Shown here: positions 7,840 through 37,007 of the stretch, one piece after another | How the letters are laid out: every line of letters begins with the position of its first letter | Numbering within the stretch: the stretch's first letter is position 1 | NCBI GenBank assembly: GCA_037445065.1 | Contig: JBBILD010000003.1 | Span: 128,001-192,000, forward strand | Direction of reading: 5' to 3' | From: Myxococcales bacterium | GTDB lineage: Bacteria; Desulfobacterota; Binatia; HRBIN30 | Length of the DNA: 64,000 nucleotides | Program-made: the position numbers and the translations under genes | Notes under the pieces: model-generated | What the model was told of the DNA's origin: nothing | What the model saw: only the letters and a program-made list of their open reading frames with translations | Databases searched by the model: none

Positions 7840-8466
7840 TTACTGCTGCGCGAGGCGCTCTTGCAAGTAGCGGTCGCGAAAACGCAGGACGCGCGCAACA
7901 TAATCCCAGGTCTCCGGAAAGGGAGGAATCCCCCCGGCGCGATCCACCGCTCCTTCACCCGCGTTGTAGGCCGCGAGTGCCAGGCGTAAGTTGCCATTGT
8001 AGCGATCCAACAGGTAGCGCAGGTGGCGCACCCCCCCATCGATGTTTTCCCTGGGATCGAACACCCGCGCTACCCCGCGCAAGCGGGCAGTGCCGGGCAT
8101 GAGCTGCATGAGGCCCAAGGCCCCCTTCGGTGAGACCGCGTCGGCTACGAAATCGGATTCGGCGCGGATGACGGCCTTGACCAGCGCCACGTCTACTTGA
8201 TGGCGTTCCGCCGCTTGCCGCACGATGTGGTCGTAGGCCTGATAGCGCTTGGGGTCGACCCAACGTCGGCCCCAACTGGTCCAGCGGGCTGCACGCCACA
8301 CGTCCTTTTCGGAGCGGTAAAAGCGAAAGTGCGGTTCCGCTGGGGCGTTCGAGAAATGCAAAACTCCGCGGCCGTCCCGGTACATGTAAATGTCGGCCTG
8401 CGCCCGCGTTCCGAATGCCAAGGCGCAAGCCGATGCGAGCCATAACCACCAACCTTTCCCTCGCAT
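7840..8466 (-). CDS. Lytic transglycosylase (SLT domain) with N-terminal DUF4124-like segment
   Basis: Signal peptide, ADIYMYRDGRGVLHFSN, then SLT motifs AVIRAES, AVSPKGALGLMQLMP, LAAYNAG and ETWDYV. Confidence 0.92.
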   Translation of the reverse strand: MRGKGWWLWLASACALAFGTRAQADIYMYRDGRGVLHFSNAPAEPHFRFYRSEKDVWRAARWTSWGRRWVDPKRYQAYDHIVRQAAERHQVDVALVKAVIRAESDFVADAVSPKGALGLMQLMPGTARLRGVARVFDPRENIDGGVRHLRYLLDRYNGNLRLALAAYNAGEGAVDRAGGIPPFPETWDYVARVLRFRDRYLQERLAQQ

Positions 8467-23372: not shown

Positions 23373-23685
23373 AAGGCGGTTCAGCAGTAGCAAGCCTCCG
23401 GCGCGTTGTCCAACAGAAATCTACAACGAGACTGTGAACGCATGACTTGGGAAGCTCACGCGGCAAAGCAGATGCGCAAACTCGCCGTTTCGAGAGGAAG
23501 AAACACGTCATCGGCTGGTGCAGGTGGCGGAGCGCTGGTGACAAACTTTGTCGCCAGCGTTGGAGATGCGACTTTCGAAGCAGCACAATTCGGCAGAAAA
23601 AGCCCCAGCTTCGGACTTTGGCACGAACACGAAAATTCTTGCACGAGAAAAAAAGACTCGGTACGAGGTTTGCTGTCGGCCGGCG

Positions 23686-24078
23686 ATGGAGCGGGTCGTG
23701 GGAAAGAGAAAAACAAACGGGTTCACCTTAATCGAGCTTCTCACCGTGATCGCGATTCTCGGTGTGCTGGCGGCGATCGCGATCCCCCAGTTCATGCTGT
23801 ATCGCCAGCATGCTTTCGATGGGCTTGCGCAAAGCGACTTGCGCAACGTAGTAACTGCCGAGGAGGCGTACTTTACCGCGAACGGGTCTTATGTGAGCTG
23901 CAGTTCGGCGGCGAACTGTCAAGCAATTTTGCACGGCTACACGAAATCGGACAATGGCGTACAACTCGCAGTGGAAGCAACGGCGACCACCTTCGTGGGC
24001 ACCTCCAAACACATCCAGGGAGGTGGGGGAATCTGGAAGTTCGACAGCGAACAAGGCCGCTATATTTATTTAGAATAG
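23686..24078 (+). CDS. Type IV pilin (PilA-like)
   Basis: Class III signal KRKTNG|FTLIELLTVIAILGVLAAIAIPQF. Upstream TTGCAC-N17-TACGAG (23639-23667). Confidence 0.93.
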   Translation: MERVVGKRKTNGFTLIELLTVIAILGVLAAIAIPQFMLYRQHAFDGLAQSDLRNVVTAEEAYFTANGSYVSCSSAANCQAILHGYTKSDNGVQLAVEATATTFVGTSKHIQGGGGIWKFDSEQGRYIYLE

Positions 24079-24139: not shown

Positions 24140-24254
24140 GGTTTCCTGACGGGACCGGCCGAGACGTGGGATGCCCGAAAACCGCTGGGGCGCCCGAGCG
24201 GGCGATGGCGTTTGCGGCGCATCCCTCCGTTTCGCATGCCGGTCGTCAGGAACC
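24140..24254. other. Extended rod-like inverted-repeat structure (candidate structured RNA or miniature element)
   Basis: Nested helices TTCCTGACG/CGTCAGGAA, ACCGGC/GCCGGT, CGAGACG/CGTTTCG, GGGATGC/GCATCCC and CGCCC/GGGCG. Confidence 0.5.
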
Positions 24255-24439
24255 GAGAGGCTAGATACGCAGGGTTGCGAGGGGTTCCACGAGCGCGGCG
24301 TTTGCTGTGCCCCAAAGCCCCAATTTTTCTTCTCTGGCTGCTTGCCTCGCTCGGCCGCTACGCGGTAGGCGCAGCCCGAGCTGCTGAGCGGAAGGGGGGC
24401 GCGAAGCGAGCGCGCGGAACTCGCGGAAGGAGCGTCACA

Positions 24440-26812
24440 ATGGCTCGTCAGGGGCAAGTGGAGCGAAAGATCGGGCTGGGAGGGCTTTGCGTCATTGCTG
24501 CGATGTTCGTGGCGCAACTTGGCGTCCACTCGGCGGGGGCAATCCAATGTAGCGGCGGAGAGACCGACGGATTTTCTTGCGACGATGGCAATCCCTGCAC
24601 GGTGGGCGACGTGTGCTGGAACCAGCAGTGCCAACCGGGCTCTGTTGCCACAGGCAACGCGTGTGACGATGGAGACGTATGTACGATCGGTGAGAGCTGC
24701 CAGTCGGACGGTTCGTGCGGTGGGGGAAGCATCAACGGTGCGTGCGGTTGCTGCGAGTTCACCAGTAATACGGGGGGCGGTGAGTTCGGAACTTGCACCT
24801 CGCCGGTGACCGAGGAGGATTGCGAGCAGGAGCTAGGAGGGTTCTTTGAACAAGGGGGCATTTGCAATACGCAGTCAGGCGTTTGCCAGGCTGGCGGCGA
24901 GTGTGGGAACGGGCAGGTGGAGGGGTTCGAACAGTGCGACGACGGCAACCAAGAAAGTGGCGACTGCTGCGACGCGAGCTGCCAGTTCGAATCGCAAGGC
25001 GCAGCCTGCAAGGATGGCAACCCATGCACACTCAACGATTCTTGCGACGGGTCTGGCATTTGCACCGGGGGCAGTGCAAACCCGCAGTGTGGTTGCTGCG
25101 AGTTCGGTCTCCTTTCGAGCGTCTTCGATTCGTCAGCGCGGACGCTCGAGGGCGCCTGCGAGGCCCCGGTGGAGGAACAGTCTTGCCGCGATTCGCTGGG
25201 GGAGTTCTTCCAGGGGGCGAGTTGCAATCTGGAACTCGGCACGTGTGAATTAGCCGCGGTTTGCGGCAACGGGACGGTCGAGATCGGTGAACAGTGCGAC
25301 GACGGAAACCTGGAGAACGGAGATTGTTGCGACTCCTCCTGCCAGTTTGAGGAGCTGGAAAGCCCTTGCAGCGACGGAAATGCTTGCACCGACGAGGACT
25401 ATTGCAACGGCGAAGGGACCTGCGTCTCTGGCGTTCCCGTAAGCTGCAACGATTCCAACGAGTGCACGACGGACGTGTGCGATCCGCAGCAGGGGTGTAC
25501 CTTTACTCCGAATAACGATCCGTGCGACGACGGGAATGCGTGTACGTTCGATGATACCTGCTCCGACGGCCAGTGCATTGGCACGCTGGTCTCCTGCCAG
25601 CCGCCGGTCCCGCCGTGCGAGTCCGGCGAGTTTTGCAACCCGAGCAGCGGCTTGTGTGAAGCTCTACCTGACGCGCCCACCACGGTTCCATGCGAACTGG
25701 ACCAGAACGTCTGCACGGTAGACCGCTGTGATGGCAACGGTTCGTGTCAGTTCGTGGAAAACGCCGAGGCTGGCACGCCGTGCGACGACGGATTGTTCTG
25801 TAACGGCCTGGGCGACACATGCGACGGATCGGGTCAATGCCAGCATCCGGGGGACCCCTGCTCGGGTGGGAGCGAGTGCAGCCGGACTTGCAATGAGGCG
25901 GCGGACAACTGCTTTGACCCGGTTGGAACGCCGTGCAGCGAGGATGGGTTGGTGTGCACGGCGGATCAATGCGACGGGTCGGGGATCTGTGGCCACACGC
26001 AGGTGCCGGTGAGCCAATGCCCGAAGGGCTACGTGATCTTGGAGGCGCCTGCATCGGCAACAGTCAATGCGGAAGTTGCCTACACCTCACAGGTCAAGGG
26101 CGGTTCGGCATGCGCGGAAAACGTACGGCTCCGACAGGCGTCGCTGCTGGATGGAAACGCGATCGGGCCGAGTGGCGTGAGGGTCGGAAAGGATGCTGTG
26201 GCAAGCGGCATGTGTGTCACTGCCGGTGCGAGCGTGATTCTTGGCGTGAACGCGCAGTGTCTGGCGGGTACCGACACGAGTGGCACGCATACGTTGCTAA
26301 GCGATTGTTCAGGCGCATCGGACTTGGCGGAACAGCGGAGGCAGATGCTGCTCGCTCTGAGTGCGGATCAGAGTTTGGGGTCGGTCACCGTTGGAACGAG
26401 TGCCACGCATGACATCACTCCGTTCAGCACGGCACCTGGTGACGTGGTGGTGATTGACTACGATTCGCTTACGATCAAACCGAACCGTACCCTCACGATC
26501 AAAGGGAACGCGAACACGGCGGCGGTGGTCATTCGCATCTCAGGGAATCTGCGCGTACGCCTGAACGGGAAGATCGTTACGCAGGGCATCCCCGCAGGCC
26601 CGGGGGGATCTCCGGCTGAGCGCGTGCTGTTTTTGGTAGGGGGAACGGCGGAGCTTCGGCGGATTGCGGAGGTGCAGGGCACGATTTTCTCCCAAGGTAC
26701 GCTCACCGTCCGCCGGGACGCGCAGGTGACCGGTGCGCTGGTCAGCGCTGCTTCGCCCTTGCGGGTGCGACCATCGGTGGAAGTCGTCCACGCGCCGTGG
26801 GTACTGTGGTAG
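24440..26812 (+). CDS. Large secreted cysteine-rich repeat protein (myxococcal Cys-rich/DUF4215-like and CDDGNxCT repeats) with a C-terminal beta-rich domain
   Basis: SD GGAAGGAG, signal peptide, CGNGxVExxEQCDDGNxxxGDCC twice, many CDDGNxCT units and a Cys-poor C-terminus. Confidence 0.85.
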   Translation: MARQGQVERKIGLGGLCVIAAMFVAQLGVHSAGAIQCSGGETDGFSCDDGNPCTVGDVCWNQQCQPGSVATGNACDDGDVCTIGESCQSDGSCGGGSINGACGCCEFTSNTGGGEFGTCTSPVTEEDCEQELGGFFEQGGICNTQSGVCQAGGECGNGQVEGFEQCDDGNQESGDCCDASCQFESQGAACKDGNPCTLNDSCDGSGICTGGSANPQCGCCEFGLLSSVFDSSARTLEGACEAPVEEQSCRDSLGEFFQGASCNLELGTCELAAVCGNGTVEIGEQCDDGNLENGDCCDSSCQFEELESPCSDGNACTDEDYCNGEGTCVSGVPVSCNDSNECTTDVCDPQQGCTFTPNNDPCDDGNACTFDDTCSDGQCIGTLVSCQPPVPPCESGEFCNPSSGLCEALPDAPTTVPCELDQNVCTVDRCDGNGSCQFVENAEAGTPCDDGLFCNGLGDTCDGSGQCQHPGDPCSGGSECSRTCNEAADNCFDPVGTPCSEDGLVCTADQCDGSGICGHTQVPVSQCPKGYVILEAPASATVNAEVAYTSQVKGGSACAENVRLRQASLLDGNAIGPSGVRVGKDAVASGMCVTAGASVILGVNAQCLAGTDTSGTHTLLSDCSGASDLAEQRRQMLLALSADQSLGSVTVGTSATHDITPFSTAPGDVVVIDYDSLTIKPNRTLTIKGNANTAAVVIRISGNLRVRLNGKIVTQGIPAGPGGSPAERVLFLVGGTAELRRIAEVQGTIFSQGTLTVRRDAQVTGALVSAASPLRVRPSVEVVHAPWVLW

Positions 26813-26854
26813 CCGTCGCTCACCAGCGCCCGCGCGCAGGTGCATTCGGTAGCA

Positions 26855-26899
26855 GCGGCCTACCCCTCATGAGCTAGGGGTAGGCCGCCTTTGCTTTCC
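26855..26899 (+). terminator. Intrinsic terminator-like hairpin
   Basis: 13-bp stem GCGGCCTACCCCT/AGGGGTAGGCCGC followed by CTTTGCTTT. Confidence 0.7.
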
Positions 26900-27564
26900 G
26901 AAGTAAGCGGCCGAAGTGAATGGGACAGAAATTGGCTGTAGCTTCGGACCGAAGCTTCTCCTCCAATTAGGCCGCCAAAGCCTCATTTGGAGTGGTGGGC
27001 CTGCGCGATTGTCGCCCTTTGGAGATCTCATGGTCTCTAAGCCCGAGCGAGGGCGTACTTCAGCGAGAGACTGCGTAGACCACTGTGAGTTGCCGCGTGG
27101 CAGTGGCCCGAGCTGTCCTCACCGTTTTTAGGTGAGAGCCAACTCGGGGGACACCGGTTCTCACGGTGACGGTTGTTAAAGCGGGGTCGCGGCTGCCAGG
27201 ATCCACGAGAGGCAGGGTGCGCTTTTCGGCTGCCGCGAGTTCGGACGTTGTGGCTGGTTTGCTCGCTGCAATTCGTATCGAAGTTCGACCGTCGCGTTGG
27301 CGTTCCGCTTGTCGGGCCAGTAACAGCAGGCGCCAAAGACCGTGCATCGGCCCGGCAGAAATCCTGAAGAGCAGAGCGATACAACAACGAAGGAGAGCGC
27401 CGTCGGAAGCCCGATCTCTCCAAACGCGGGACGGTGCGAGCAAGGCGTCGAGGCCACTGCGATGGGGGCCACATTGTAAAGGGCTGTGCCGGAAAAGAGG
27501 GCCGTGGGTTAGGCGGAGCTGGCGGGGCTGAGGAGGGAGGGAAAAGAAGAAAGATCCCGATGTG

Positions 27565-27593
27565 GTGAAAATGATTATCAAAATCGTTACAGA
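27565..27593 (+). promoter_or_regulatory. Fur box overlapping the predicted promoter of the heme-uptake operon
   Basis: GAAAATGATTATCAAAATC (27567-27585) matches 15/19 to GATAATGATAATCATTATC (16/19 on the reverse strand). It lies inside GTGAAA-N17-TACAGA. Confidence 0.8.
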
Positions 27594-27762
27594 CCAGCTC
27601 CGATGGGCCACGAGAGGAGAAGAAAGAGAAGTTGGGGCTCGGTAATCGCATTTCGGGGAGGACAGCTACGTCGAAGCCGATTGCGGCGATTGCGCTCGGA
27701 GGCCGGTGCCCGGTGCGCGTGAGGTGGGCGGCTGTGTCGCCAACAGCGGTTGGGATTGAACG

Positions 27763-27975
27763 ATGAGCGAGGCATCGAGTGGGAAGCGTGATCCTGCTTT
27801 CGTTGGCGGGCCGGGGGATGTCCGTTGTTGCTGCGGCAGTTTGCTTGCTCGGCTGCTGAAGGATGGAGTCGAGCTCAAGTGCCGCCGATGCAAGCGCATT
27901 GTGTTTCTGGATTTCAGAGGAGAGCTCGTTGTGAAGGAGCGTTCACCGCCGGACAGAGGCGTTTCTTCGACTTGA
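27763..27975 (+). CDS. Mu Com-like zinc-ribbon protein (70 aa)
   Basis: DVRCCCGSLLARLLKDGVELKCRRCKR matches the Com-family pattern RCxxCxxLL...ExKCxRC. Confidence 0.72.
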   Translation: MSEASSGKRDPAFVGGPGDVRCCCGSLLARLLKDGVELKCRRCKRIVFLDFRGELVVKERSPPDRGVSST

Positions 27976-27992
27976 CTTTGTTTCCGCGGCCC

Positions 27993-28057
27993 GAGGTCAC
28001 GAACCCAGAGCCCACGTGATTTTCTGACTTTGACAACACATTTGGAGGGTTCGATGA
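27993..28057 (+). promoter_or_regulatory. Putative two-state translational RNA switch (tandem GARNNCA motifs, anti-SD helix)
   Basis: GAGGTCA-c-GAACCCA-GAGCCCA. TCACGAACCC (27997-28006) pairs with GGGTTCG-A-TGA (28047-28057). The alternative hairpin is GAGGTCACG/CGTGATTTT. Confidence 0.5.
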
Positions 28058-29205
28058 GAGTTCGGAAAAGACCGTTCGTACTAAGTTTGTGGGCTGTGAC
28101 TGTGATGCTTCTCGCGCCACAAGCGGAGACGCGCGCAGACACTCTGGTGATCGACGATCAAACCCCGGGCACGGTATATGATGCGATCTTGGATGGTTAC
28201 CCTGGGTTTTTCACCCAGGACGGAATGCCGGACGCTGGCAACAACAATTTGGCGGTTGCCTTGAAGGCTGGCGCTACTGAGTTGCGCAGCATCGCCGAGT
28301 TTCCTCTTTCTCCGCTAGCAGGCCGGACCTCAGCGGATGTCTTGTCGGCGAAGTTGCGTTTTAATGTGGACGACGTTTTGGGGTTTCTGGGTGCACCGCT
28401 CAGCGGCTGCGCGCCTGAGAATATCGCGGTGTGGGTACGGGCTGGTGACGGTGCGATTCCTCTTTCCGACTTCATCGTAACGGGCCCGCCTACCGCTGTA
28501 GTGAACACGGGCCTGAGTTGCTCAATCACCGATACGACCCTGGGCAGCACGGGTCCTGTGATCTTTGAGGTCACGGTGACCTCCGCCTTGAAGGACCTCC
28601 TGGAGGCAAATGCGCAGTTCGCCAATGTTGTCTGGGCAACGAACTCTGACAACACAGGTGCCTCGATGGACGACTTGGGGCTGGACAGTTCTGGGCCTCC
28701 TGGGGTTCGCGGTGCCCGCATGCCCTATCTGGTCATTGAGTTAGCGGAACTGCCTCCCCCCTCGCTGGATGCGAAGACCCGGCGGTGCCAGCGGACTGTG
28801 ACAACACACGCTCTAAGCTTAGAGAGTCTTGTGCAGCGGCAGCTCGCTGCGTGCAGCGATCGTGTGCTCAACGACTCCGCTGCCGGGAAACCGCTGACGA
28901 AGGCAACGGATTTCTGCGCTGCGCGCTTGTCGTGGATACCCGTTGACAATTCGCGAGTGTGGAAATGGCGCGGCGCGGCGGAGGCGGCGATCCGCAAGGC
29001 GTGTGCTCCGCCGGTCGTGCTGACCGATTTAGGCCCGCCTTGTGATCAAAATATCGTGGATGAAACTGCGCTGGCGACCTGCGTTTTGGACCAGGCACTG
29101 CAAAGTGCTCAGAGAACGTTCCGCCGCTCTAACGCGCTGATTTGTCGTACCTTGACGGCAGTGGGGCTGAACCTCCAGTACCCAAACGCTTGCTCGCTGA
29201 ACTGA
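28054..29205 (+). CDS. Secreted protein of unknown function: N-terminal beta-sandwich-like domain plus Cys-linked helical C-terminal domain
   Basis: SD GGAGG and signal peptide (ends TRA-D). N-domain is paralogous to the next gene. Confidence 0.85.
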   Translation: MRVRKRPFVLSLWAVTVMLLAPQAETRADTLVIDDQTPGTVYDAILDGYPGFFTQDGMPDAGNNNLAVALKAGATELRSIAEFPLSPLAGRTSADVLSAKLRFNVDDVLGFLGAPLSGCAPENIAVWVRAGDGAIPLSDFIVTGPPTAVVNTGLSCSITDTTLGSTGPVIFEVTVTSALKDLLEANAQFANVVWATNSDNTGASMDDLGLDSSGPPGVRGARMPYLVIELAELPPPSLDAKTRRCQRTVTTHALSLESLVQRQLAACSDRVLNDSAAGKPLTKATDFCAARLSWIPVDNSRVWKWRGAAEAAIRKACAPPVVLTDLGPPCDQNIVDETALATCVLDQALQSAQRTFRRSNALICRTLTAVGLNLQYPNACSLN

Positions 29206-29284
29206 GTGAGCGCGTGCCGTCAGCCCCGGGGCCGTGTCGTGAGTGCGGCGGCACAGCCCCGGCTCCCTGATCCGGAGGTCAGAG

Positions 29285-30271
29285 ATGAGAGGAAGTTTCG
29301 CCTTGGTTCTTGGGTTGTTGGTAACGGCAGTTTCGCACTCCGTCCATGGGGAAGCAGTGCGCATTGGCGAATCCGATGGTGCGTTGTATGATGGAATCTT
29401 TGACGGGTACCCTGGCATAGCGTTGTTCGACGGAACCCCTGATCTGACGAACAACCCCCCCTCCGTGGCGCTCAAATTTGGGGTGCTGGAAATGCGAACG
29501 GTAGCGGAGTTCCCGTTACCTGCAGTAGCCGGAAAACGCCTCAGCGGCGCCGACCGAGTCGTACTTCACTTCAACATCGACGATGTAATTCCCACGTTCG
29601 GGCCGGGCGCGGAATTCTCTGGACGAGCGGCAAGCACAATTCTTGTGCACCCGTATTGCGGCGACGGAGCCACTGCTCTCGATGACTCCCTACAGGTCGG
29701 CGCTGCTGCGTTCGAAGTGGATACTACACCCTTCGGAGTCATCACAGACGAGACCCTCGCTCGATCCGGTCCGCTGTTTTTTGAACTCGACGTCACCGAG
29801 GCGGTGGTTGATCTCTTGGCCGAAGGCTGCGCGTGGCTCGGATTTGTTTTTCGGACCACGACGAACAACACGGCGACTTCGATTGATGACCTCGGGGACG
29901 GAGGCAGCTACGGCGGCACAAAAGGAGCTGGGGGAGCCAGTCTACCCTCTTTGGAGTGGTTTTTCTCGGCGGAAGCGCCGCCAACTCTAACCACTACAGT
30001 GGAGCCTGTCGCCAGCCCGACACTCAGCCCTACGCCGACAGCGCGCAGCGAGGGACCGAGCGAAACACCGACAACAACGCCGGCGTGCGCCGGTGACTGC
30101 AACGGCGACTCGGCAGTGACGATCGACGAGGTGTTAGTTCTTGTTCGGATTGCCCTCGGCCTTGGGAGCCCAGACTCGTGCGTTGCTGGGGACCTCGATC
30201 GGAGCGCCGATATCACCGTCGACGAGATCATCGTGGCCGTGACTGCAGCGCTTTTGGGTTGCCAACCGTGA
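29285..30271 (+). CDS. Secreted paralog with Pro/Thr linker and dockerin-like C-terminal domain
   Basis: SD GGAGG, signal peptide, PT-rich linker, CAGDCNGDSAVTIDEV...GDLDRSADITVDEI...GC. Confidence 0.85.
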   Translation: MRGSFALVLGLLVTAVSHSVHGEAVRIGESDGALYDGIFDGYPGIALFDGTPDLTNNPPSVALKFGVLEMRTVAEFPLPAVAGKRLSGADRVVLHFNIDDVIPTFGPGAEFSGRAASTILVHPYCGDGATALDDSLQVGAAAFEVDTTPFGVITDETLARSGPLFFELDVTEAVVDLLAEGCAWLGFVFRTTTNNTATSIDDLGDGGSYGGTKGAGGASLPSLEWFFSAEAPPTLTTTVEPVASPTLSPTPTARSEGPSETPTTTPACAGDCNGDSAVTIDEVLVLVRIALGLGSPDSCVAGDLDRSADITVDEIIVAVTAALLGCQP

Positions 30272-32538
30272 CGGGGACGTTTCGTCGTGTTGGCTGGGAA
30301 TTCGCTCCGCGGGTGTTGCCGGTGTTGTTGCTGTGGTTTGTGCACAGCCGCGAGGCCATTGGTGACCCGCAGCTCCGGCGAGAGTCGTATGTGTTGGAGG
30401 AAATCGTCGTGCAAGACGAAGCGGCAGCAGTTGAGGTGTCCCGCTCCGTGCTTCCGGCGCAGGAAATCACCCGGGACACCCTGGAGACGACGTCGGTAGT
30501 GGATCCGGAAGACGCGCTCGAGTTCGTGCCAGACTTGTACATTCGCCGAAACGAACCCTTTCGCCTAGGCGCGAGTACGGTTCGCTTGCAGGGTGCCGAC
30601 CCGAACAAGACGGCCGTCCTCATCAATGGCAAGCGGATGCTTGGTGGGGTGGATGGCGTGGTAGACTTGAGAGACATCCCCGCCGTACTGCTCGACCGGG
30701 TTGAGCTGCACCGTGGTGTAGCGGGAGGGTTTGTGGATAGCGAGGCCATGGCGGGCAGCATCAACATCGTGACCCGCACCCCCAAGGAGCAGCCTGAGTG
30801 GACAGCCACCGCGGCAGGGGGCTCGTTCGACCGCATATTCGCCGGCGCTTCGCACTCGTACCGATGGCGCGGGCTCGCATACCTGGTGGCTTACGAACAC
30901 GATGAACTCGCGCTCGCTCGGCAGTTCGGAGCGATCAGCCGCCAGTTCGAAGGTTCCGGATCGGATGCCAAACAGACGCGAGACAACGTCTTCTTGCATG
31001 CGGCTTTCGATGCGACTGACCGACACCAAATTTCGAGCACGATCCATTTTCTGCCAGTGCGGGAAGGACCGCTCAGTCGCCGCCTCAATGTGACTACGGA
31101 TGTGGGCTGGAGAGGGCGCTTCCCCGGACCCACGGAGGTGCACTTGTCGGCTGGCCGCTTTGGGTTTGATCGGAGGAACGATCTGGCTGGATTCGAAGAA
31201 GACGTTGCCTTCGAGCAGTGGTTCGGGGAGGCCCGCGCGGCGCTGGCGCCGTGGATCGTTTTGGATTCGCATCACAGCATCGAGGCGGCCTACCGCTTCC
31301 GGCTCCCCAGTTTGCGACTCGCTGCCGGGGGACTTCGCGAGGCGGCGACTTCGCTCGCTTCGCCTCCCGGAGTGGCGGAGAGTACCAGCCTTCAGAGTTG
31401 TGCACTGCGTTATGATTGGTCGGACTTGGGGCAGTGGTCGGCGAGTGCAGGAACCAACTTCGATTTGCATTCCTTGTTCGGACTCGAGGTCAATCCAAGG
31501 GCCGTGGTCACCTTTCGCCCGACCGATCGGTTCCGGCTCAGTGTGGGAGTTGGGCGGGGATTTCGCGCTCCGGATTTACTGCAGTTATTCGACGCGGATT
31601 TGAACAACGCAGTGCCTGTAGGGAATCGTCCTATCGGTTACGCGATTCTCGGCGACCGCACCCTGCGGCCAGAAATCGATTTAGCAACCAATGTGGACTT
31701 GACTTGGTGGCCGGCCTCTTGGTTACGGGTACAATCGAACCTATTCCGCCACGATTTTCGCGACTTAATCGATGTCGTTTTGCGGTGTACAGGTCCCCAA
31801 CAGTGCGCCGCCGGCTTCACGCATCCGTTCCCCACGCTGGTCGGACAAGTGTTCCAGTACGCCAACGTGTCCGAGGCAGAGAGCGCTGGTGCTGACCTCT
31901 CTTTGGAAATCTCTTGGAGCGCCTTTGGACGAAACGGTCGGCCGCCGCTGACGGGCAGTTTCGGCCTCAATTACGGGTACCTGTATTCACGGAATGACTC
32001 CGAGCGGCCCGGGGAGAAGGGGAAGGAGCTGCCGTTTCGACCTCCGCACCGTTTCATTCCAAGCTTGTTCGTTCGCGATGAAGGAAGCGGTGCGAGCGGG
32101 CGCTTTTGGGCGGAGTACGACGACCGAGTGTTCACGGACCTTGTTAACAGTGCAACTGGCATTGCTCGCGCTCATTGGATCCTGAACGCTCGGTTCGAAT
32201 GGTCGCCCAGTCCTTGGTTCGAGGTTGGCCACGCCAACGGATTGAAGTCGCTGCTGGCTAACTCGAGCGTATTTTTGGAGGGGAGCAATTTGCTGGACAC
32301 CGAGTTCGGAGCCCCGGTCCGCTCACGCGAATGGCGGGTAGACGTAGCCTCTTGTTCGGGATCCGCACACAACGATGACGTTTCGACTCGGTCGCCCATT
32401 GCCGTTTGTGCCCGTGTCCGTCCTGACCCACGCGTTGGCCTTGCTATGGCTGAGCAGAGTTGGGTTCGTAACTTTGCAGGCCTACGAGGACCCCATTCGC
32501 GTCATCATCGTCGCGGGAGGTACGCATCGAGAGCCTGA
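30268..32538 (+). CDS. TonB-dependent receptor (probable heme/iron receptor) with an apparent frameshift near the 3' end; natural stop probably at 32378
   Basis: TonB box EEIVV, plug VLING...RVELHRG...GSINIVT, GFRAP. GTGA overlap with the upstream stop. Confidence 0.88.
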   Translation: MTGTFRRVGWEFAPRVLPVLLLWFVHSREAIGDPQLRRESYVLEEIVVQDEAAAVEVSRSVLPAQEITRDTLETTSVVDPEDALEFVPDLYIRRNEPFRLGASTVRLQGADPNKTAVLINGKRMLGGVDGVVDLRDIPAVLLDRVELHRGVAGGFVDSEAMAGSINIVTRTPKEQPEWTATAAGGSFDRIFAGASHSYRWRGLAYLVAYEHDELALARQFGAISRQFEGSGSDAKQTRDNVFLHAAFDATDRHQISSTIHFLPVREGPLSRRLNVTTDVGWRGRFPGPTEVHLSAGRFGFDRRNDLAGFEEDVAFEQWFGEARAALAPWIVLDSHHSIEAAYRFRLPSLRLAAGGLREAATSLASPPGVAESTSLQSCALRYDWSDLGQWSASAGTNFDLHSLFGLEVNPRAVVTFRPTDRFRLSVGVGRGFRAPDLLQLFDADLNNAVPVGNRPIGYAILGDRTLRPEIDLATNVDLTWWPASWLRVQSNLFRHDFRDLIDVVLRCTGPQQCAAGFTHPFPTLVGQVFQYANVSEAESAGADLSLEISWSAFGRNGRPPLTGSFGLNYGYLYSRNDSERPGEKGKELPFRPPHRFIPSLFVRDEGSGASGRFWAEYDDRVFTDLVNSATGIARAHWILNARFEWSPSPWFEVGHANGLKSLLANSSVFLEGSNLLDTEFGAPVRSREWRVDVASCSGSAHNDDVSTRSPIAVCARVRPDPRVGLAMAEQSWVRNFAGLRGPHSRHHRRGRYASRA

Positions 32539-33142
32539 GCCGGCTTCCGAGACATTGCCGTCTGGGGATCCTCGGCTGCCCTCGTCAGACGGCGCGAGCG
32601 GAAACCTCAAGGCCAGTGAGGTGGTAAAGCCGGTGGCAAAGCCGAGAACGAAGAGCAACGCTCGAGATGCTCGAGTTGTCTCGCGCCGCAAGCGTGAAAA
32701 GGAAAGAACTTGGCAGGCGCCGGTTCCGGAAAAGACGGAAGGGGCATTGGGCAATGGAGTTGCGGACGCCATTGGGAGCACCGGTGGGGAAAAGACCGGG
32801 GGCGGTTACGGCCAAGCCGATTCGGGTCGGTCCGGAGAACCCACAGACGCGGTAGGTCGGTACCTGCGTGCGGTACGGGCTTTGATCGACGCGCGCAAGC
32901 GCTATCCAGAGGAGACGCGGCGTACTGGTATCGAGGGCGTGGCCGTCCTTGCCTTTGTGATCGAACAGGACGGTCGACTCGCGGATCTCAAGGTTCTGTC
33001 GGCTGATGACCGGCTGTTTGCCATGGCGGCACTTGCAGCAGTGAAGGATGCCGCGCGCTGGATCGGACCTCCCCCAGCGGGCCAGCCGATGCCCGTCCAA
33101 GTGTCTCTTCGGTTCGAGTTAACGGAGAGGAGGAGACGTTGA
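32375..33142 (+). CDS. tonB: Energy transducer TonB
   Basis: N-terminal TM with SVLTHAL. C-terminal KRYPEETRRTGIEGVAVLAFVIEQDG...FEL. Confidence 0.85.
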   Translation: MTFRLGRPLPFVPVSVLTHALALLWLSRVGFVTLQAYEDPIRVIIVAGGTHREPEPASETLPSGDPRLPSSDGASGNLKASEVVKPVAKPRTKSNARDARVVSRRKREKERTWQAPVPEKTEGALGNGVADAIGSTGGEKTGGGYGQADSGRSGEPTDAVGRYLRAVRALIDARKRYPEETRRTGIEGVAVLAFVIEQDGRLADLKVLSADDRLFAMAALAAVKDAARWIGPPPAGQPMPVQVSLRFELTERRRR

Positions 33143-34053
33143 TGTTTCTGGTAGTGCGCGGAAGAGGAGCGGTTGGGGTCGTTCTCTCGAGTCTTTCCTT
33201 GGTGGTTGCGCCGAGCCCCGCCCGTGGGGGTCAGCTCGACTACGTTCCGAGTCGGATCGTCGCGATTGGGCCGTGGGTCACGAAGATTCTCTTTGAACTA
33301 GGTGCCGGTGACCGAGTGGTTGGAGTGGACTCGGCAAGCACCAGTCCCCGGGCTGTGCGCGCGAGGCCGAAGGTCGGGTACTTTCGCAGTCTGACGGTGG
33401 AGGGCCTCCTGGCGCTCGAACCTCAATTGATCTTGGCAATCAACGAGGCCGGTCCTCCCGAGGTCTTCGAGCAGGTCCGCGCGGCAGGAGTTAAGCTTAT
33501 GCAACTCCCTCCGCTAAAAAATGTTTCGGTTGCCAGCGAGGCTATTCGAAAGGTGGGGGTGGCAATCGGGCGAGAGGAGGAGGCCGTTCAGCTCGCCAAG
33601 CGGTTGGTCAGTAGGCTGGAGTCGCTACGAAAGCACGCTGACCGTGTGGCCGAGCGGCCGCGAGTGCTCCTGTTGTTCGCTCCCACTGCGCATACGTTGC
33701 TCATTGCCGGACGCGACACCGTGTCCGACCTTCTGATTCGTTTTGCAGGGGCGCAGAACGCAGCAGAATCGATTGTCGGCCTGAAAGCGTTAGGTGCCGA
33801 GGGGATCCTAGCCAGCAAGCCTGAGTGGATTTTAGTAACGGAGCACACCTTGCGTACTCTCGGAGGCGAAAAGGGGCTGTGGTCCCTGCCAGCGATTGCT
33901 CGCACCCCAGCGGCGGAGCAACAGCGCTTGTTCGTCGGCAGTGACGGGGGGCTGCTCGCTCCAGGACCGAGCTTTGTGCGGTGCGCGGAAGCACTATCCC
34001 ACCGTTTGCACGGCGAAGCTAGCGGCAGCGATTCATGTACTGGGGGAGATTGA
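33139..34053 (+). CDS. hmuT: Hemin ABC transporter substrate-binding protein
   Basis: RIVAIG, VVGVDSAS and VGYFRSLTVEGLLAL (heme-ligand Tyr as in HmuT/PhuT), plus operon context. Confidence 0.85.
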   Translation: MMFLVVRGRGAVGVVLSSLSLVVAPSPARGGQLDYVPSRIVAIGPWVTKILFELGAGDRVVGVDSASTSPRAVRARPKVGYFRSLTVEGLLALEPQLILAINEAGPPEVFEQVRAAGVKLMQLPPLKNVSVASEAIRKVGVAIGREEEAVQLAKRLVSRLESLRKHADRVAERPRVLLLFAPTAHTLLIAGRDTVSDLLIRFAGAQNAAESIVGLKALGAEGILASKPEWILVTEHTLRTLGGEKGLWSLPAIARTPAAEQQRLFVGSDGGLLAPGPSFVRCAEALSHRLHGEASGSDSCTGGD

Positions 34054-34054
34054 G

Positions 34055-35110
34055 ATGCAATCTTTACGGATCCAGCGTTCGGTAAGGGCTGGAGCAATTT
34101 TGCTCATTGTGACCTTGAGTTCGCTGGCGGCGTCTTCGTTGCTGGTCGGTCCAAAGAGCATTCGTTGGCACGAAGCGATGAGCGCAGTGTTTCCAGGAGC
34201 ATCCGGGAGGACAGGCAGTGATCTCGAATTGACCCGTTACGTTCTCCTGCACCTGTGCTTGCCGCGCACGCTTCTAGCGCTGGGCGTGGGCGTGGCGCTG
34301 GCCCTGGCAGGGACGGTGTTGCAGGCCCTATGGCGCAACGCTCTGGCGGATGCGGGGGTCCTGGGCATCAGCACCGCAGCAGCCCTCGGCGCGGCTACAA
34401 CTTTGGTCGGTTTACCGCACTTAGAGAGCGTTCCGTTCGTGCCTGGTTACCTCCACGTAGCCCTCGGGGCTTTTCTGTTCGCGGCTGGTACCATCGCGCT
34501 TCTGTACCGATTGTCGCAGCGGGCCTGCGGCACGAGCCTCGCAACGCTTTTGCTTTTGGGAATCGCCTTCAATGCAGCGGGATCAGGCCTCCTCGGTTTG
34601 CTGCTGTTTGTTGCTTCGGACGCCCAACTGCGGGCTCTCACCTTTTGGACTCTGGGAAGTGTGGCCGGAGCCACCTGGACAGTGACTGCGAGCCTATGGG
34701 CAGCCCTCGGCTGTCTCGCTCCGCTGAGTTGGCGTCTTCGCTGGGCGCTCGATGCGCTCCTGCTCGGAGAGAGCAATGCGTTTTACCTTGGGTGGGAGCC
34801 GCGGCCGATCAAGCGGGCTGCGATATGGAGCGCGGCGACACTGGTTGCGGTTGCGGTGGCTGCGGTCGGGCCAATTGCGTTTGTGGGACTGATTGTGCCC
34901 CATTTCCTCCGGTTGGTGGTGGGGCCCAGCCATGCAGTGCTCCTGCCCGCATCCGCGATCGGTGGGGCGGCGTTCGTTCTCGGCTGTGATGTGCTTGCTC
35001 GGTGTATCGTGAGCCCGGCCGAACTGCCCCTCAGCGTGATTACCGCCGGTCTTGGCGGGCCAATGCTGCTGGTCCTTTTGCTGAACCGCTCCGCGGCGGA
35101 GGGCTTGTGA
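34055..35110 (+). CDS. hmuU: Hemin ABC transporter permease (FecCD family)
   Basis: LPRTLLA, QALWRNALAD, WTLGS, LGESNAFYLG, GPIAFVGLIVPH, AELPLSVIT. Confidence 0.9.
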   Translation: MQSLRIQRSVRAGAILLIVTLSSLAASSLLVGPKSIRWHEAMSAVFPGASGRTGSDLELTRYVLLHLCLPRTLLALGVGVALALAGTVLQALWRNALADAGVLGISTAAALGAATTLVGLPHLESVPFVPGYLHVALGAFLFAAGTIALLYRLSQRACGTSLATLLLLGIAFNAAGSGLLGLLLFVASDAQLRALTFWTLGSVAGATWTVTASLWAALGCLAPLSWRLRWALDALLLGESNAFYLGWEPRPIKRAAIWSAATLVAVAVAAVGPIAFVGLIVPHFLRLVVGPSHAVLLPASAIGGAAFVLGCDVLARCIVSPAELPLSVITAGLGGPMLLVLLLNRSAAEGL

Positions 35111-35976
35111 TGCTGGAGGCGCGACAGGTGCGATTTGGTTTTGCTGCGAGACCCCTCCTATTCGGTGTGAGTCTCGAGCTGGGGCCTGGGGATTTGCTGG
35201 GGCTCGTGGGCCGGAATGGCTCTGGCAAGTCGACGCTTCTGAGGATTTGCGCTGGGGAACTTCGGCCATCTGACGGGGAGGTTGTGTTGGAAGGGCGCCC
35301 TCTCTCGCTATGGGAGCCGGAAGCGCGGGCGCGCCGGGTCGGTGTACTTTCGCAAGAACAGCCCCTCTCCTTCCCTTTCCGCGTACGCGAAGTTGTTCAG
35401 CTTGCGTGGGCTGCAAGAAGGATTCGTTCTGGCCCCGAGGCTGCCACCACCGTGGACATGCTGCTTGATCGTTTTGATTTAGGGGGGCTGGCCGACCGGC
35501 CGTACACACACCTTTCCGGGGGGGAGCGGCAACGCACGCACATCGCGCGCGTCCTGGCCCAAGTTTGTGTGGAGCGCCCATGGGAACGTCGCTACCTGTT
35601 GCTCGACGAGCCGACGAATCACCTCGACCTTCGGTTTCAGTTGGTTTTGCTGGAGACTCTGCGCGAACTAGCCCGAGAAGGCGTGGGCATTCTAGTCGTG
35701 ACCCACGATGTGGTGTTTCTTTCGCAGTGCGTCGAGCAGGTCTTCCTGATGGAGTGCGGGCGCATTTTGGCCGCTGGGCCGCCGAGCGGGGTCCTGCAAA
35801 GCCCGATTAGCCAGCTCGTCTTTGGTGTTCGCTTTCTATGTGTCGAGCCGGCCCGATCGGATGGTAAGCGCGGGGAACTCGTTGTGCCGGATATGACCCG
35901 GGGCAAGCAGCCCTGGCAAAAAGGAGAAACGAATGCAGAGAGCGGAAACGTCTTGGGACTTGCGACAAGGATGTGA
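35110..35976 (+). CDS. hmuV: Hemin ABC transporter ATP-binding protein
   Basis: GRNGSGKST, LSGGERQR, ARVLAQ, LLLDEPTNHLD. Confidence 0.9.
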   Translation: MLEARQVRFGFAARPLLFGVSLELGPGDLLGLVGRNGSGKSTLLRICAGELRPSDGEVVLEGRPLSLWEPEARARRVGVLSQEQPLSFPFRVREVVQLAWAARRIRSGPEAATTVDMLLDRFDLGGLADRPYTHLSGGERQRTHIARVLAQVCVERPWERRYLLLDEPTNHLDLRFQLVLLETLRELAREGVGILVVTHDVVFLSQCVEQVFLMECGRILAAGPPSGVLQSPISQLVFGVRFLCVEPARSDGKRGELVVPDMTRGKQPWQKGETNAESGNVLGLATRM

Positions 35977-37007
35977 GGACGTTGTAAGGCGCGAGCGGTT
36001 GCGCACGATAGATGCGGCACAGCGCCTCGGCGTCTCTGAACTGGAGCTGCTCGATGCTTACCCGGAATGCGTCCACCGGCTGACTGGGGAGTTCAATCGA
36101 ATCTTTTCCACTCTCGGAGAAATCGGGCCCTTGCTGGCAATCACACGCAACGCGCATGCCGTACTGGAATGCAGCGGCCTTTATACGCCATTTGCGTATT
36201 CGGAGGAGAACTCCCTCGTGCTCGGCGAGGCGGTAGACTTGCGCTTGTCCATTCGCCGCTTCGCTCATGCCCGCCTGGTTGACTGGCTGAACCCGTTTCG
36301 GATTCCTGCAGGTGTTCTTTTCTTCGATGAACCGGGCCGAGCCATCCACAAGGCCTTCTTTACGGCAGACACTTCGGCGGATGCGGCCGACGTCGTTCTT
36401 GAACGATTCGCCCTCGATCCGAGGGTCGCGGCGGCGCCCGGAGCGCCGGGTGGAGCGACAGCCAACACCTGAAGTGCCATCCCGCCCTTTGTCCGCTGTA
36501 GCGGTAGATGCAGAGGAAGTTCGAAAAGCTTGGTCCGAGATGCGGGACACGCACGACATTGCGCCGCTGTTGCAACGGTTGCGTTTGTCCAGGATCGAGG
36601 CCTTGCGGCTTCTTGCCCATGATTGGGCCTGGCCGGCCCATCCACATTCCATGTGGTTCCTCATACAGGAGCTGGCTGGGACAGGTTTGCCGATCATGGT
36701 CTTTGTCGGAAATCATGCAGTCACGCAGATTTACAAGGGGCCAATCGAGCGACCGGTGATGGCGGGGACTTGGTGGAACGTATTGGACCGTCGCTTTAAT
36801 CTGCACGTGGAAGCTTCCGGGCTGGGCGAGAGTTGGGTTGTCCGGAAGCCAGTGCCAGAGGGAGCTGTGACGAGTTTGGAAGTATTCGATCGGTCCGGCG
36901 AACTGGTGTTGCTTGTCTTTGCGCGGCGTGGGGTCGGACAGCCTGAGCCCGAAGAGTGGCGGGAACGGTTACGGGCGATCGTAAGGGCAGTGGGCGACGG
37001 CGTTTAA
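35933..37007 (+). pseudogene. hmuS: HemS/HmuS/ChuS heme-degradation/trafficking gene, split across two frames
   Basis: Frame 1 (35933-36472) has RTIDAAQRLGVSELELL, ITRN, DLRL, FFDEPGRAIHK. The +1 frame (to 37007) has WSEMRDTHD, PIMVFVGN, WWNVLDRRFNLH, WVVRKP, VTSLEVFD, EEWR. Confidence 0.8.

Follow-up and report, generated by a model that had tools for sequence, protein, structure and literature searches.

In this work we have analysed a small open reading frame (ORF) that precedes heme-uptake genes in a 64-kb stretch of DNA, referred to below as the window. Our best reading, to which we would give an even chance as a whole, is that the ORF encodes a zinc ribbon, small, basic and with a Cys4 site, which is a distant homologue of phage Mu Com and has been recruited into a host iron regulon. 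The gene lies behind a Fur-type operator and ahead of genes for iron or heme uptake, and its stop codon is followed on the same strand by a conserved hairpin. What we observed is homology to Com, an association with Fur-like sites, an RNA motif with a bias in strand and position, and limited covariation within that motif.

The small ORF and its neighbourhood

The ORF and the main elements on its two sides are the following.

27567-27585, no strand assigned: Fur-box-like site GAAAATGATTATCAAAATC, differing at 3 positions from the 19-bp E. coli Fur consensus
27763-27975, plus strand: Com-like zinc-ribbon ORF, 70 amino acids from ATG to TGA, pI 9.3
28054-29205 and 29243-30271, plus strand: a pair of secreted paralogs with no Pfam family, the first genes 3′ of the hairpin
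30178-32538, plus strand: TonB-dependent receptor (TBDR; Pfam/NCBIfam)
32375-33142, plus strand: TonB (Pfam/NCBIfam)
33139-34053, plus strand: periplasmic binding protein, Peripla_BP_2 (Pfam/NCBIfam)
33896-35110, plus strand: FecCD permease (Pfam/NCBIfam)
35002-35976, plus strand: heme-type ABC ATPase (Pfam/NCBIfam)
36312-37007, plus strand: HemS/ChuX-domain protein (Pfam/NCBIfam)

The ORF is present as the preliminary description gave it, and residues 19-45 of its translation are the peptide quoted there. Its ATG is the sole possible start, because an in-frame TGA occupies 27757-27759, three codons 5′ of it. The Fur-box-like site lies 178 nt 5′ of this ATG and is the only site with five or fewer mismatches in the window, as judged by a scan with the 19-bp E. 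coli consensus. With this site on the 5′ side and the same-strand genes from the TBDR through the HmuTUV-like transport genes to the HemS/ChuX-domain protein on the 3′ side, the earlier proposal that the ORF is the first cistron of an iron-regulated operon is borne out. It was also rightly placed outside any prophage: the flanking genes are of the housekeeping kind, such as those for GAPDH, phosphoglucomutase, glucokinase, GluRS and a pilin, with no phage gene among them, and neither a mom gene nor a com-mom phage context is present around the ORF. The comparison with HemP/HmuP holds for the position in the operon but for nothing else, since the ORF has no match to the hemP Pfam domain at E ≤ 10. 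No fur gene was found in the window (best tblastn E 0.027), and a scan of 27300-28200 found no sigma-70 promoter. The relatives of the GluRS encoded here, the best named of which are 73-74% identical, point to a Binatia-like bacterium as the source of the window.

The 950 nt between the upstream gene and the ORF (26813-27762) contain no convincing gene; the four ORFs in this interval are without a Pfam match, and it holds the Fur-like site as well as a purine-rich, AT-richer patch around 27540-27600. At 24212-26812 there is a gene for a large Cys-rich repeat protein (DUF4215 and Dicty_CTDC repeats, C-terminal ice-binding-like adhesin domain), which is adjoined by a type IV pilin-like gene at 23548-24078. 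On the other side, the two secreted paralogs have signal peptides, no NCBIfam match and a common place in cluster 34 of our blastp clustering, and the order Com-like gene, cluster 34, cluster 34, TBDR recurs in locus L006. The ESM Atlas gave weak leads (below 0.9) for the first of them, CBM96-like or TGFb-propeptide-like. These paralogs may be surface proteins for the capture of heme or iron.

A putative zinc ribbon and its relation to Mu Com

The relatives of the ORF were compared by means of A1, an alignment and profile of 40 of them.

27823-27897, plus strand: conserved core RCxCGSLLAR...GVELKCRRCKR, residues 21-45, with the invariant columns of A1

Within the core there are four conserved Cys ligands (C22, C24, C40 and C43) and eight Lys or Arg residues against three Asp or Glu; the spacing from the first to the second Cys knuckle is 15 residues in the family, and the N- and C-terminal parts are variable. 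An AlphaFold2 model of the ORF made with A1 is all beta, with strands at residues 27-31, 35-40 and 46-50, and has a mean pLDDT of 65, reaching 71-86 across approximately residues 21-50. The model fits a zinc ribbon and to this extent agrees with the fold that had been suggested, but Foldseek found no match in the PDB at E ≤ 0.001 for either the single-domain model or the model of a tandem-domain relative. The best hit of a PDB sequence search with the family profile had an E value of 0.14. The two Cys knuckles of the preliminary description were recovered, the first being CxC in all 81 sequences, but the "CCC" run in it was not: the middle residue is Cys in just 13 of the 81 and the run is therefore incidental rather than a feature of the family.

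Could such a site be a metal sensor, in which Fe(II) and Zn(II) are alternative occupants and the metal status is read out by folding and by RNA binding? The invariance of the four Cys, the unusual CxC of the first knuckle and the placement in iron regulons would accord with this addition to the model. We nevertheless think it improbable, as the third Cys of the run is not conserved and the protein of Mu is presented as a zinc protein (PMC6483171). At E ≤ 1 there was no match to the rubredoxin or the Fer2_BFD model of Pfam among the 40 members. The reference motif of rubredoxin is CxxCG...CPxCG. Bfd, the bacterioferritin-associated ferredoxin, is a small Fur-regulated [2Fe-2S] protein with CxC...CxxC ligands separated by about 31 residues. 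With its CxC and its spacing of 15 residues the ORF has neither ligand pattern, and its predicted all-beta fold also differs from Bfd.

The likeness to Com on which the preliminary description was built stands at the level of profiles. The PHROG family "gpCom control of modification" (phrog_13819) was matched by 36 of the 40 members (best 1e-4) and the PHROG family "translational regulator" (phrog_6417) by 25 of them; the ORF itself reached 8.7e-4 to the latter and 0.038 to the former. By hhalign, A1 aligned to Mu Com (AF083977) with a probability of 91.3% and an E value of 9.4e-7 over 33 columns, which cover the zinc-finger part of Com (residues 3-37) and require a one-residue gap at the first knuckle. 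The JGI label "phage FluMu protein Com" is carried by 16 of the 120 relatives listed from a total of 922. The likeness does not extend to Pfam, whose Com model matched none of the 40 members at E ≤ 1, and the ORF itself has no Pfam match at E ≤ 10 and nothing usable in NCBIfam. A pairwise BLASTP of the ORF with Mu Com aligned 16 residues, at the second knuckle only, and tblastn against 50,697 phage records gave a single match (E 0.2) in a record without annotation, which we set aside. Curated membership of the Com family, for which two CxxC knuckles are expected, appears to fail on knuckle spacing, on Pfam and on the non-phage context. Judged by its sequence, the ORF is probably a distant and divergent relative of Com, outside the curated family.

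A large family associated with iron genes

One relative of the ORF is a 70-amino-acid protein which is 97% identical, and 922 relatives were found at E ≤ 0.01 in a search among proteins of 38-123 amino acids. With the A1 profile and clusters at 50% identity, 1303 cluster representatives were detected at E ≤ 1e-3, of which 721 remained at E ≤ 1e-10. In contigs from one genome per species, 275 of 297 pattern matches encode a relative of the ORF; 80 loci (numbered L below) were retained from these matches, covering about 16 kb per genome. Their hosts are MAGs assigned to Myxococcota or "delta proteobacterium", and members of Binatia, Methylomirabilota/Rokubacteria, Acidobacteriota, Nitrospirota (Manganitrophaceae) and Thermodesulfobacteriota, and the cultured carriers among them are two Anaeromyxobacter species. 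The preliminary description had left the conservation of the ORF to be checked, and we found the core, in the form RCxCG(S/N)L(L/M/V/I/F)A(R/K)...ELKCRRCKR, in 80 of 80 loci. Two to six synonymous codons are used for the invariant residues, so that selection appears to act on the protein itself. On this sequence evidence the relatives form a large family which has no name.

Among the best 150 representatives there are twelve proteins of 71-199 amino acids in which two domains are fused in tandem and all eight Cys are kept (P0121, P0122, P0123, P0125, P0126, P0129, P0130, P0162, P0165, P0172, P0176 and P0201). A model of such a fusion had a pLDDT of 79-86 per domain and a pTM of 0.58. The fusions suggest that two zinc ribbons work jointly on the two boxes of the RNA motif described below, and it is from them that a dimer is proposed.

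The surroundings of the relatives make the link of the family to iron a strong one. A Fur-like site with five or fewer mismatches lies within 400 nt 5′ of the Cys motif in 33 of 80 loci, compared with 24 of 2199 background blocks. Among the 79 proteins encoded directly upstream, as determined by crude gene calls, there are 17 FUR proteins (16 on the same strand), 2 DtxR-type repressors, 8 FTR1 proteins (mostly fusions with cytochrome c) and 3 FeoB. Among the 150 proteins encoded by the first two genes downstream are ExbB/ExbD, FeoA/FeoB, FTR1, Plug/PepSY_TM, imelysin, cupredoxin, heme-binding and siderophore-synthesis proteins. A Pfam-verified iron gene is present no more than five genes upstream or seven genes downstream in 56 of 81 loci, and ferritin genes are near the ORF in 7. 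The commonest direct downstream partner in the blastp clustering is a porin-like protein of about 460 amino acids, linked by Atlas to Porin_O_P, which is the first plus-strand gene in 17 loci and is nearby in 21. Some downstream genes are unrelated to iron: in Anaeromyxobacter the gene is that of chorismate mutase, and elsewhere there are convergent genes for MetRS or TPR proteins.

Two further observations concern gene order. In A. soli and A. terrae (L018 and L040) a Fur-like site with five mismatches is present and the RNA motif is absent; the ORF is followed by chorismate mutase and DAHP synthase and by no transport genes. Elsewhere the ORF recurs within a set consisting of fur, an FTR1-cytochrome c fusion, the Porin_O_P-like protein of about 460 amino acids, ApbE, FMN_bind, a cupredoxin and ABC genes (L010, L015, L020, L035, L041, L048, L050, L052, L058, L059, L065 and others). 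It looks to us like a system for the reductive or the oxidative uptake of iron, so far undescribed.

A conserved hairpin after the stop codon

The preliminary description had named the RNA at 27976-28060 as a candidate target of the protein, and this stretch does hold a conserved motif.

27988-28012, plus strand: bipartite RNA hairpin of 25 nt, within a match to covariance model R1 at 27983-28017 (40.5 bits, E 3e-5)
27988-27996, plus strand: box 1 (GGCCCGAGG)
27997 and 28003, plus strand: apical pair U27997-A28003
28004-28012, plus strand: box 2 (CCCAGAGCC)

The motif is apparent in 8-mers such as CCAGAGCC, which occur in 23 of 80 of the 150-nt stretches after the stop codon compared with 8 or fewer in shuffles. 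In the aligned consensus, GGCCMGMGG(U/C)-loop-(A/G)CCCMGMGCC, the boxes can pair as a hairpin which is imperfect and has a symmetric internal loop. The commonest form of box 1 is GGCCAGCGG. The apical pair covaries in the 36 distinct rows of alignment A2 (UA 23, CG 8, UG 5, unpaired 0), and its U-G wobbles argue for an element of RNA rather than DNA. Alignment A3, which was fitted to R1, has two covarying pairs (GC 55, AU 7 and GU 7; UA 38, CG 22 and UG 8); the covariation thus amounts to one or two pairs, in A2 from rows picked by a regular expression which fixes many positions and in A3 from rows fitted to the model. The loop is mostly 4-6 nt long, and in L022, L023 and L060 (about 8260-8324) an insertion of 26-40 nt replaces it, exactly as the hairpin model would predict.

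In 1.11 Mb of sequence R1 gave 77 matches at E ≤ 1, and 73 of these are on the strand of the Com-like gene; the window contains exactly one. A match lies no more than 200 nt after the stop codon in 41 of 81 loci, with 3 more overlapping the called 3′ end, and 0.2-1.5 kb downstream in 12; 6 loci have a match only elsewhere and 17 have none. Rfam 15 gave no match at E ≤ 10 in 27300-28300, and none at the gathering score in 8 loci (104 kb). The 25-nt hairpin is the new result of this analysis.

Since box 1 begins 12 nt 3′ of the stop codon in the window and the ORF is short and Cys-rich, is it the act of translation, not the product, which matters, with a ribosome at the stop codon remodelling the RNA downstream? 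We consider such leader-peptide attenuation very improbable. The amino acids are conserved across phyla while synonymous change is free, a zinc-ribbon fold is predicted and tandem-domain fusions exist; moreover, the match starts 17-100 nt past the stop codon in most loci, which is too far for ribosome occlusion.

Several loci carry more than one copy of the motif (L045 at 8216, 10139 and 10584; L019 at 385 and 7791; L052 at 1073 and 1780; L054 at 8227 and 8676; two copies in L071), and L019 and L045 have two Com-like ORFs each. These multiple copies hint that the protein acts in trans or that modules are repeated. R1 also gave weaker matches (24-27 bits) at about 2090-2450 in six Binatia-type loci (L026, L046, L061, L064, L068 and L080), some 5.9 kb 5′ of the ORF and ahead of another conserved gene block, with clusters 18 and 9.

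Is the hairpin then an independent element? It might be a cis-regulator read by a different factor or responsive to a metabolite or metal ion, or else a 3′-UTR or sRNA element, while the protein works elsewhere in iron homeostasis, for example in binding a metal or an Fe-S cluster or as a partner of Fur. The copies away from a Com-like ORF (L045 10139, L052 1780, L054 8676 and the six Binatia-type loci) would be explained in this way, as would the 17 loci whose ORF is not accompanied by the motif; in 17 of 79 loci fur lies directly next to the ORF, and CxC...CxxC is also the ligand pattern of Bfd-type [2Fe-2S] proteins. However, 25 nt is small for a metabolite aptamer and the linkage to the ORF is tight, both in distance (41 of 81 within 200 nt) and in strand (73 of 77). 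The sole detectable protein relatives are the RNA-binding Com proteins, there is no Pfam match to Fer2_BFD, rubredoxin or any metal-protein family, and the Cys spacing is 15 residues and not the 31 or so of Bfd. An independent hairpin seems to us possible but unlikely.

A further alternative, which overlaps with our best explanation, is that the protein acts in trans as a global post-transcriptional regulator in iron starvation, with the hairpin as one of many targets or as an autoregulatory site, in the manner of FbpA/B/C and FsrA of Bacillus subtilis or of HemP/ChuP. The core stays invariant in several phyla and in operons of very different types, several copies of the motif are present in some loci (three in L045, two each in L052, L054 and L071), and ChuP is reported to act positively and post-transcriptionally on two receptor genes (10.1101/2022.02.10.479982). 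Against this, the window has a single copy of the motif, and the view of the relatives extends to about 16 kb per genome. We regard this broader role as rather unlikely.

Leader folding and a proposed mechanism

When the motif is folded in isolation it adopts the proposed hairpin, which is weak (-2.3 to -10.4 kcal/mol across instances; -6.2 kcal/mol for the minimum free energy (MFE) fold of the window copy). Competing helices between box 2 and downstream sequence have -20 to -47 kcal/mol and prevail in the MFE fold of whole leaders. The pairing of box 2 with downstream sequence was itself dropped as evidence and the statistic discarded, because box 2 also pairs downstream in 74.5% of shuffled controls. 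Among 53 instances with E < 0.01, 13 have a terminator-like hairpin with a U run and 15, including the window, have an SD-like sequence and a start codon at the 3′ arm; of the remainder, 15 have another hairpin and 10 have none. A simple terminator scan with a loop limit of 3-8 nt did not list the motif-linked hairpins of L045 and L005.

28000-28053, plus strand: predicted alternative (OFF) helix, in which CGAACCC (28000-28006) pairs with GGGUUCG (28047-28053)

In the window this helix would mask the region from the 3′ end of the SD sequence GGAGGG (28044-28049) up to the ATG at 28054. The MFE of 27970-28075 is -24.7 kcal/mol, with a z-score of 0.46 which is not significant. If the motif hairpin is forced to form, at a cost of 5.4 kcal/mol, the mean probability that the stretch from the SD sequence to the AUG is unpaired increases from 0.23 to 0.58.

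We hypothesize that the protein is a Fur-controlled, Com-type RNA-binding activator or antiterminator of its own operon; we infer the binding, the switch and its direction, and could be right or wrong about them in equal measure. Under iron limitation Fur would leave the operator, the transcript would start and the small protein would be made first. By default, the leader would fold so that box 2 enters the stronger downstream helix, which would be an intrinsic-terminator-like hairpin in some lineages and a helix covering the SD sequence and start codon in others, the window included. The protein, probably as paired zinc ribbons, would bind and stabilise the weak hairpin of box 1 and box 2 and so keep box 2 from the inhibitory helix. 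Transcription or translation would then continue into the genes for outer-membrane receptors, porins and transport. Mu Com follows such a logic on the mRNA of mom, as do the RAT-type antiterminators in their leaders; here it would be transferred to iron uptake, and the target would be the protein's own leader and possibly further copies of the motif as well. Perhaps the Com-type zinc ribbon and its own "Com-box" hairpin form an undescribed module in which the occupancy of the CxC/CxxC site (by Zn or Fe(II), or through thiol oxidation) decides binding; we put this forward tentatively and doubt it more than we believe it, its probability being low.

Comparison with known regulators

By analogy, and with moderate confidence as part of the best reading as a whole, we suggest that the protein works like Mu Com, and that in position and sign it resembles HemP/ChuP and the RAT antiterminators. 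Like Mu Com it is small and basic, with a Cys4 zinc finger near the N terminus and a tail which varies; it also shares the signature ...LL...(I/V)E(I/L)(R/K)CxRCKR with homology at the profile level, and the place of a first cistron directly ahead of the gene controlled, control being in our case a proposal. According to PMC6483171, the zinc fingers of Mu Com bind a bipartite hairpin motif, CC(N)2-3GAG / GAG(N)2CC, in which the GA dinucleotide is reported to be crucial, and this hairpin adjoins the translation-inhibition structure of mom, which Com opens. A CC..GAG hairpin beside an inhibitory structure resembles box 1 and box 2 beside a terminator or an SD-sequestering helix. Box 2 fits CC(N)2-3GAG in 39 of 77 instances; box 1 in its commonest form is without GAG. 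R1 found nothing at the com-mom site of Mu, its best match elsewhere in that region having 5.3 bits and an E value of 2.2. The family thus differs from Mu Com in its CxC in place of CxxC, in the unmatched Pfam model and in an RNA motif which is not that of Mu; it also differs in being chromosomal, with a Fur-type operator and with no mom or prophage, and in that some lineages have a predicted terminator instead of a translation block.

HemP-type proteins are not known to be Cys4 zinc ribbons, and no sequence relation connects HemP, HmuP or ChuP with the ORF. The likeness is that of a small first cistron in a Fur-repressed heme operon with a TBDR and an ABC transporter, here behind a Fur-like site. 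ChuP is reported to be such a first-cistron protein of a Fur-repressed heme operon and a positive post-transcriptional regulator of receptor genes (10.1101/2022.02.10.479982). The RAT-binding antiterminators (BglG/SacY/LicT) and other protein-dependent attenuators share the logic of a weak imperfect hairpin overlapping the 5′ arm of a terminator; in contrast, the predicted fold of the ORF is unrelated, CAT and PRD domains are lacking and it is the leader transcript itself that encodes the regulator. In the RAT mechanism the bound protein stabilises the weak hairpin, which leads to read-through. FbpA/B/C of B. subtilis are also small, basic and Fur-repressed and are thought to act on RNA in iron starvation. 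They are, however, not known to be zinc ribbons, they work with an sRNA in iron sparing and not on the leaders of uptake operons, and we detected no homology between them and the ORF.

Implications

To our knowledge Com has until now been regarded as a curiosity of phages, with a single known target, and we know of no post-transcriptional control of iron in Myxococcota, Binatia, Methylomirabilota, Nitrospirota or Acidobacteriota. A literature search that covered few subscription journals found no report linking Com-like proteins to iron or describing the family or the RNA motif. With a protein of 70 amino acids and an RNA of 25 nt, the hypothesis is directly testable in vitro. If it is true, the motif would be a compact RNA element outside Rfam 15 with two kinds of expression platform, as in riboswitches. 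If the protein and its hairpin do form such a module, with metal occupancy deciding the binding, iron would be read twice, by Fur on DNA and by the small protein on RNA, and a protein-dependent checkpoint of antitermination or translation would lie on top of Fur control in several mostly uncultured phyla. Already on our best reading, if it holds, the Com fold would be an RNA regulator of cells, widespread and linked to Fur regulons, with no fewer than 1303 representative clusters and with 275 hits among the genomes of species.
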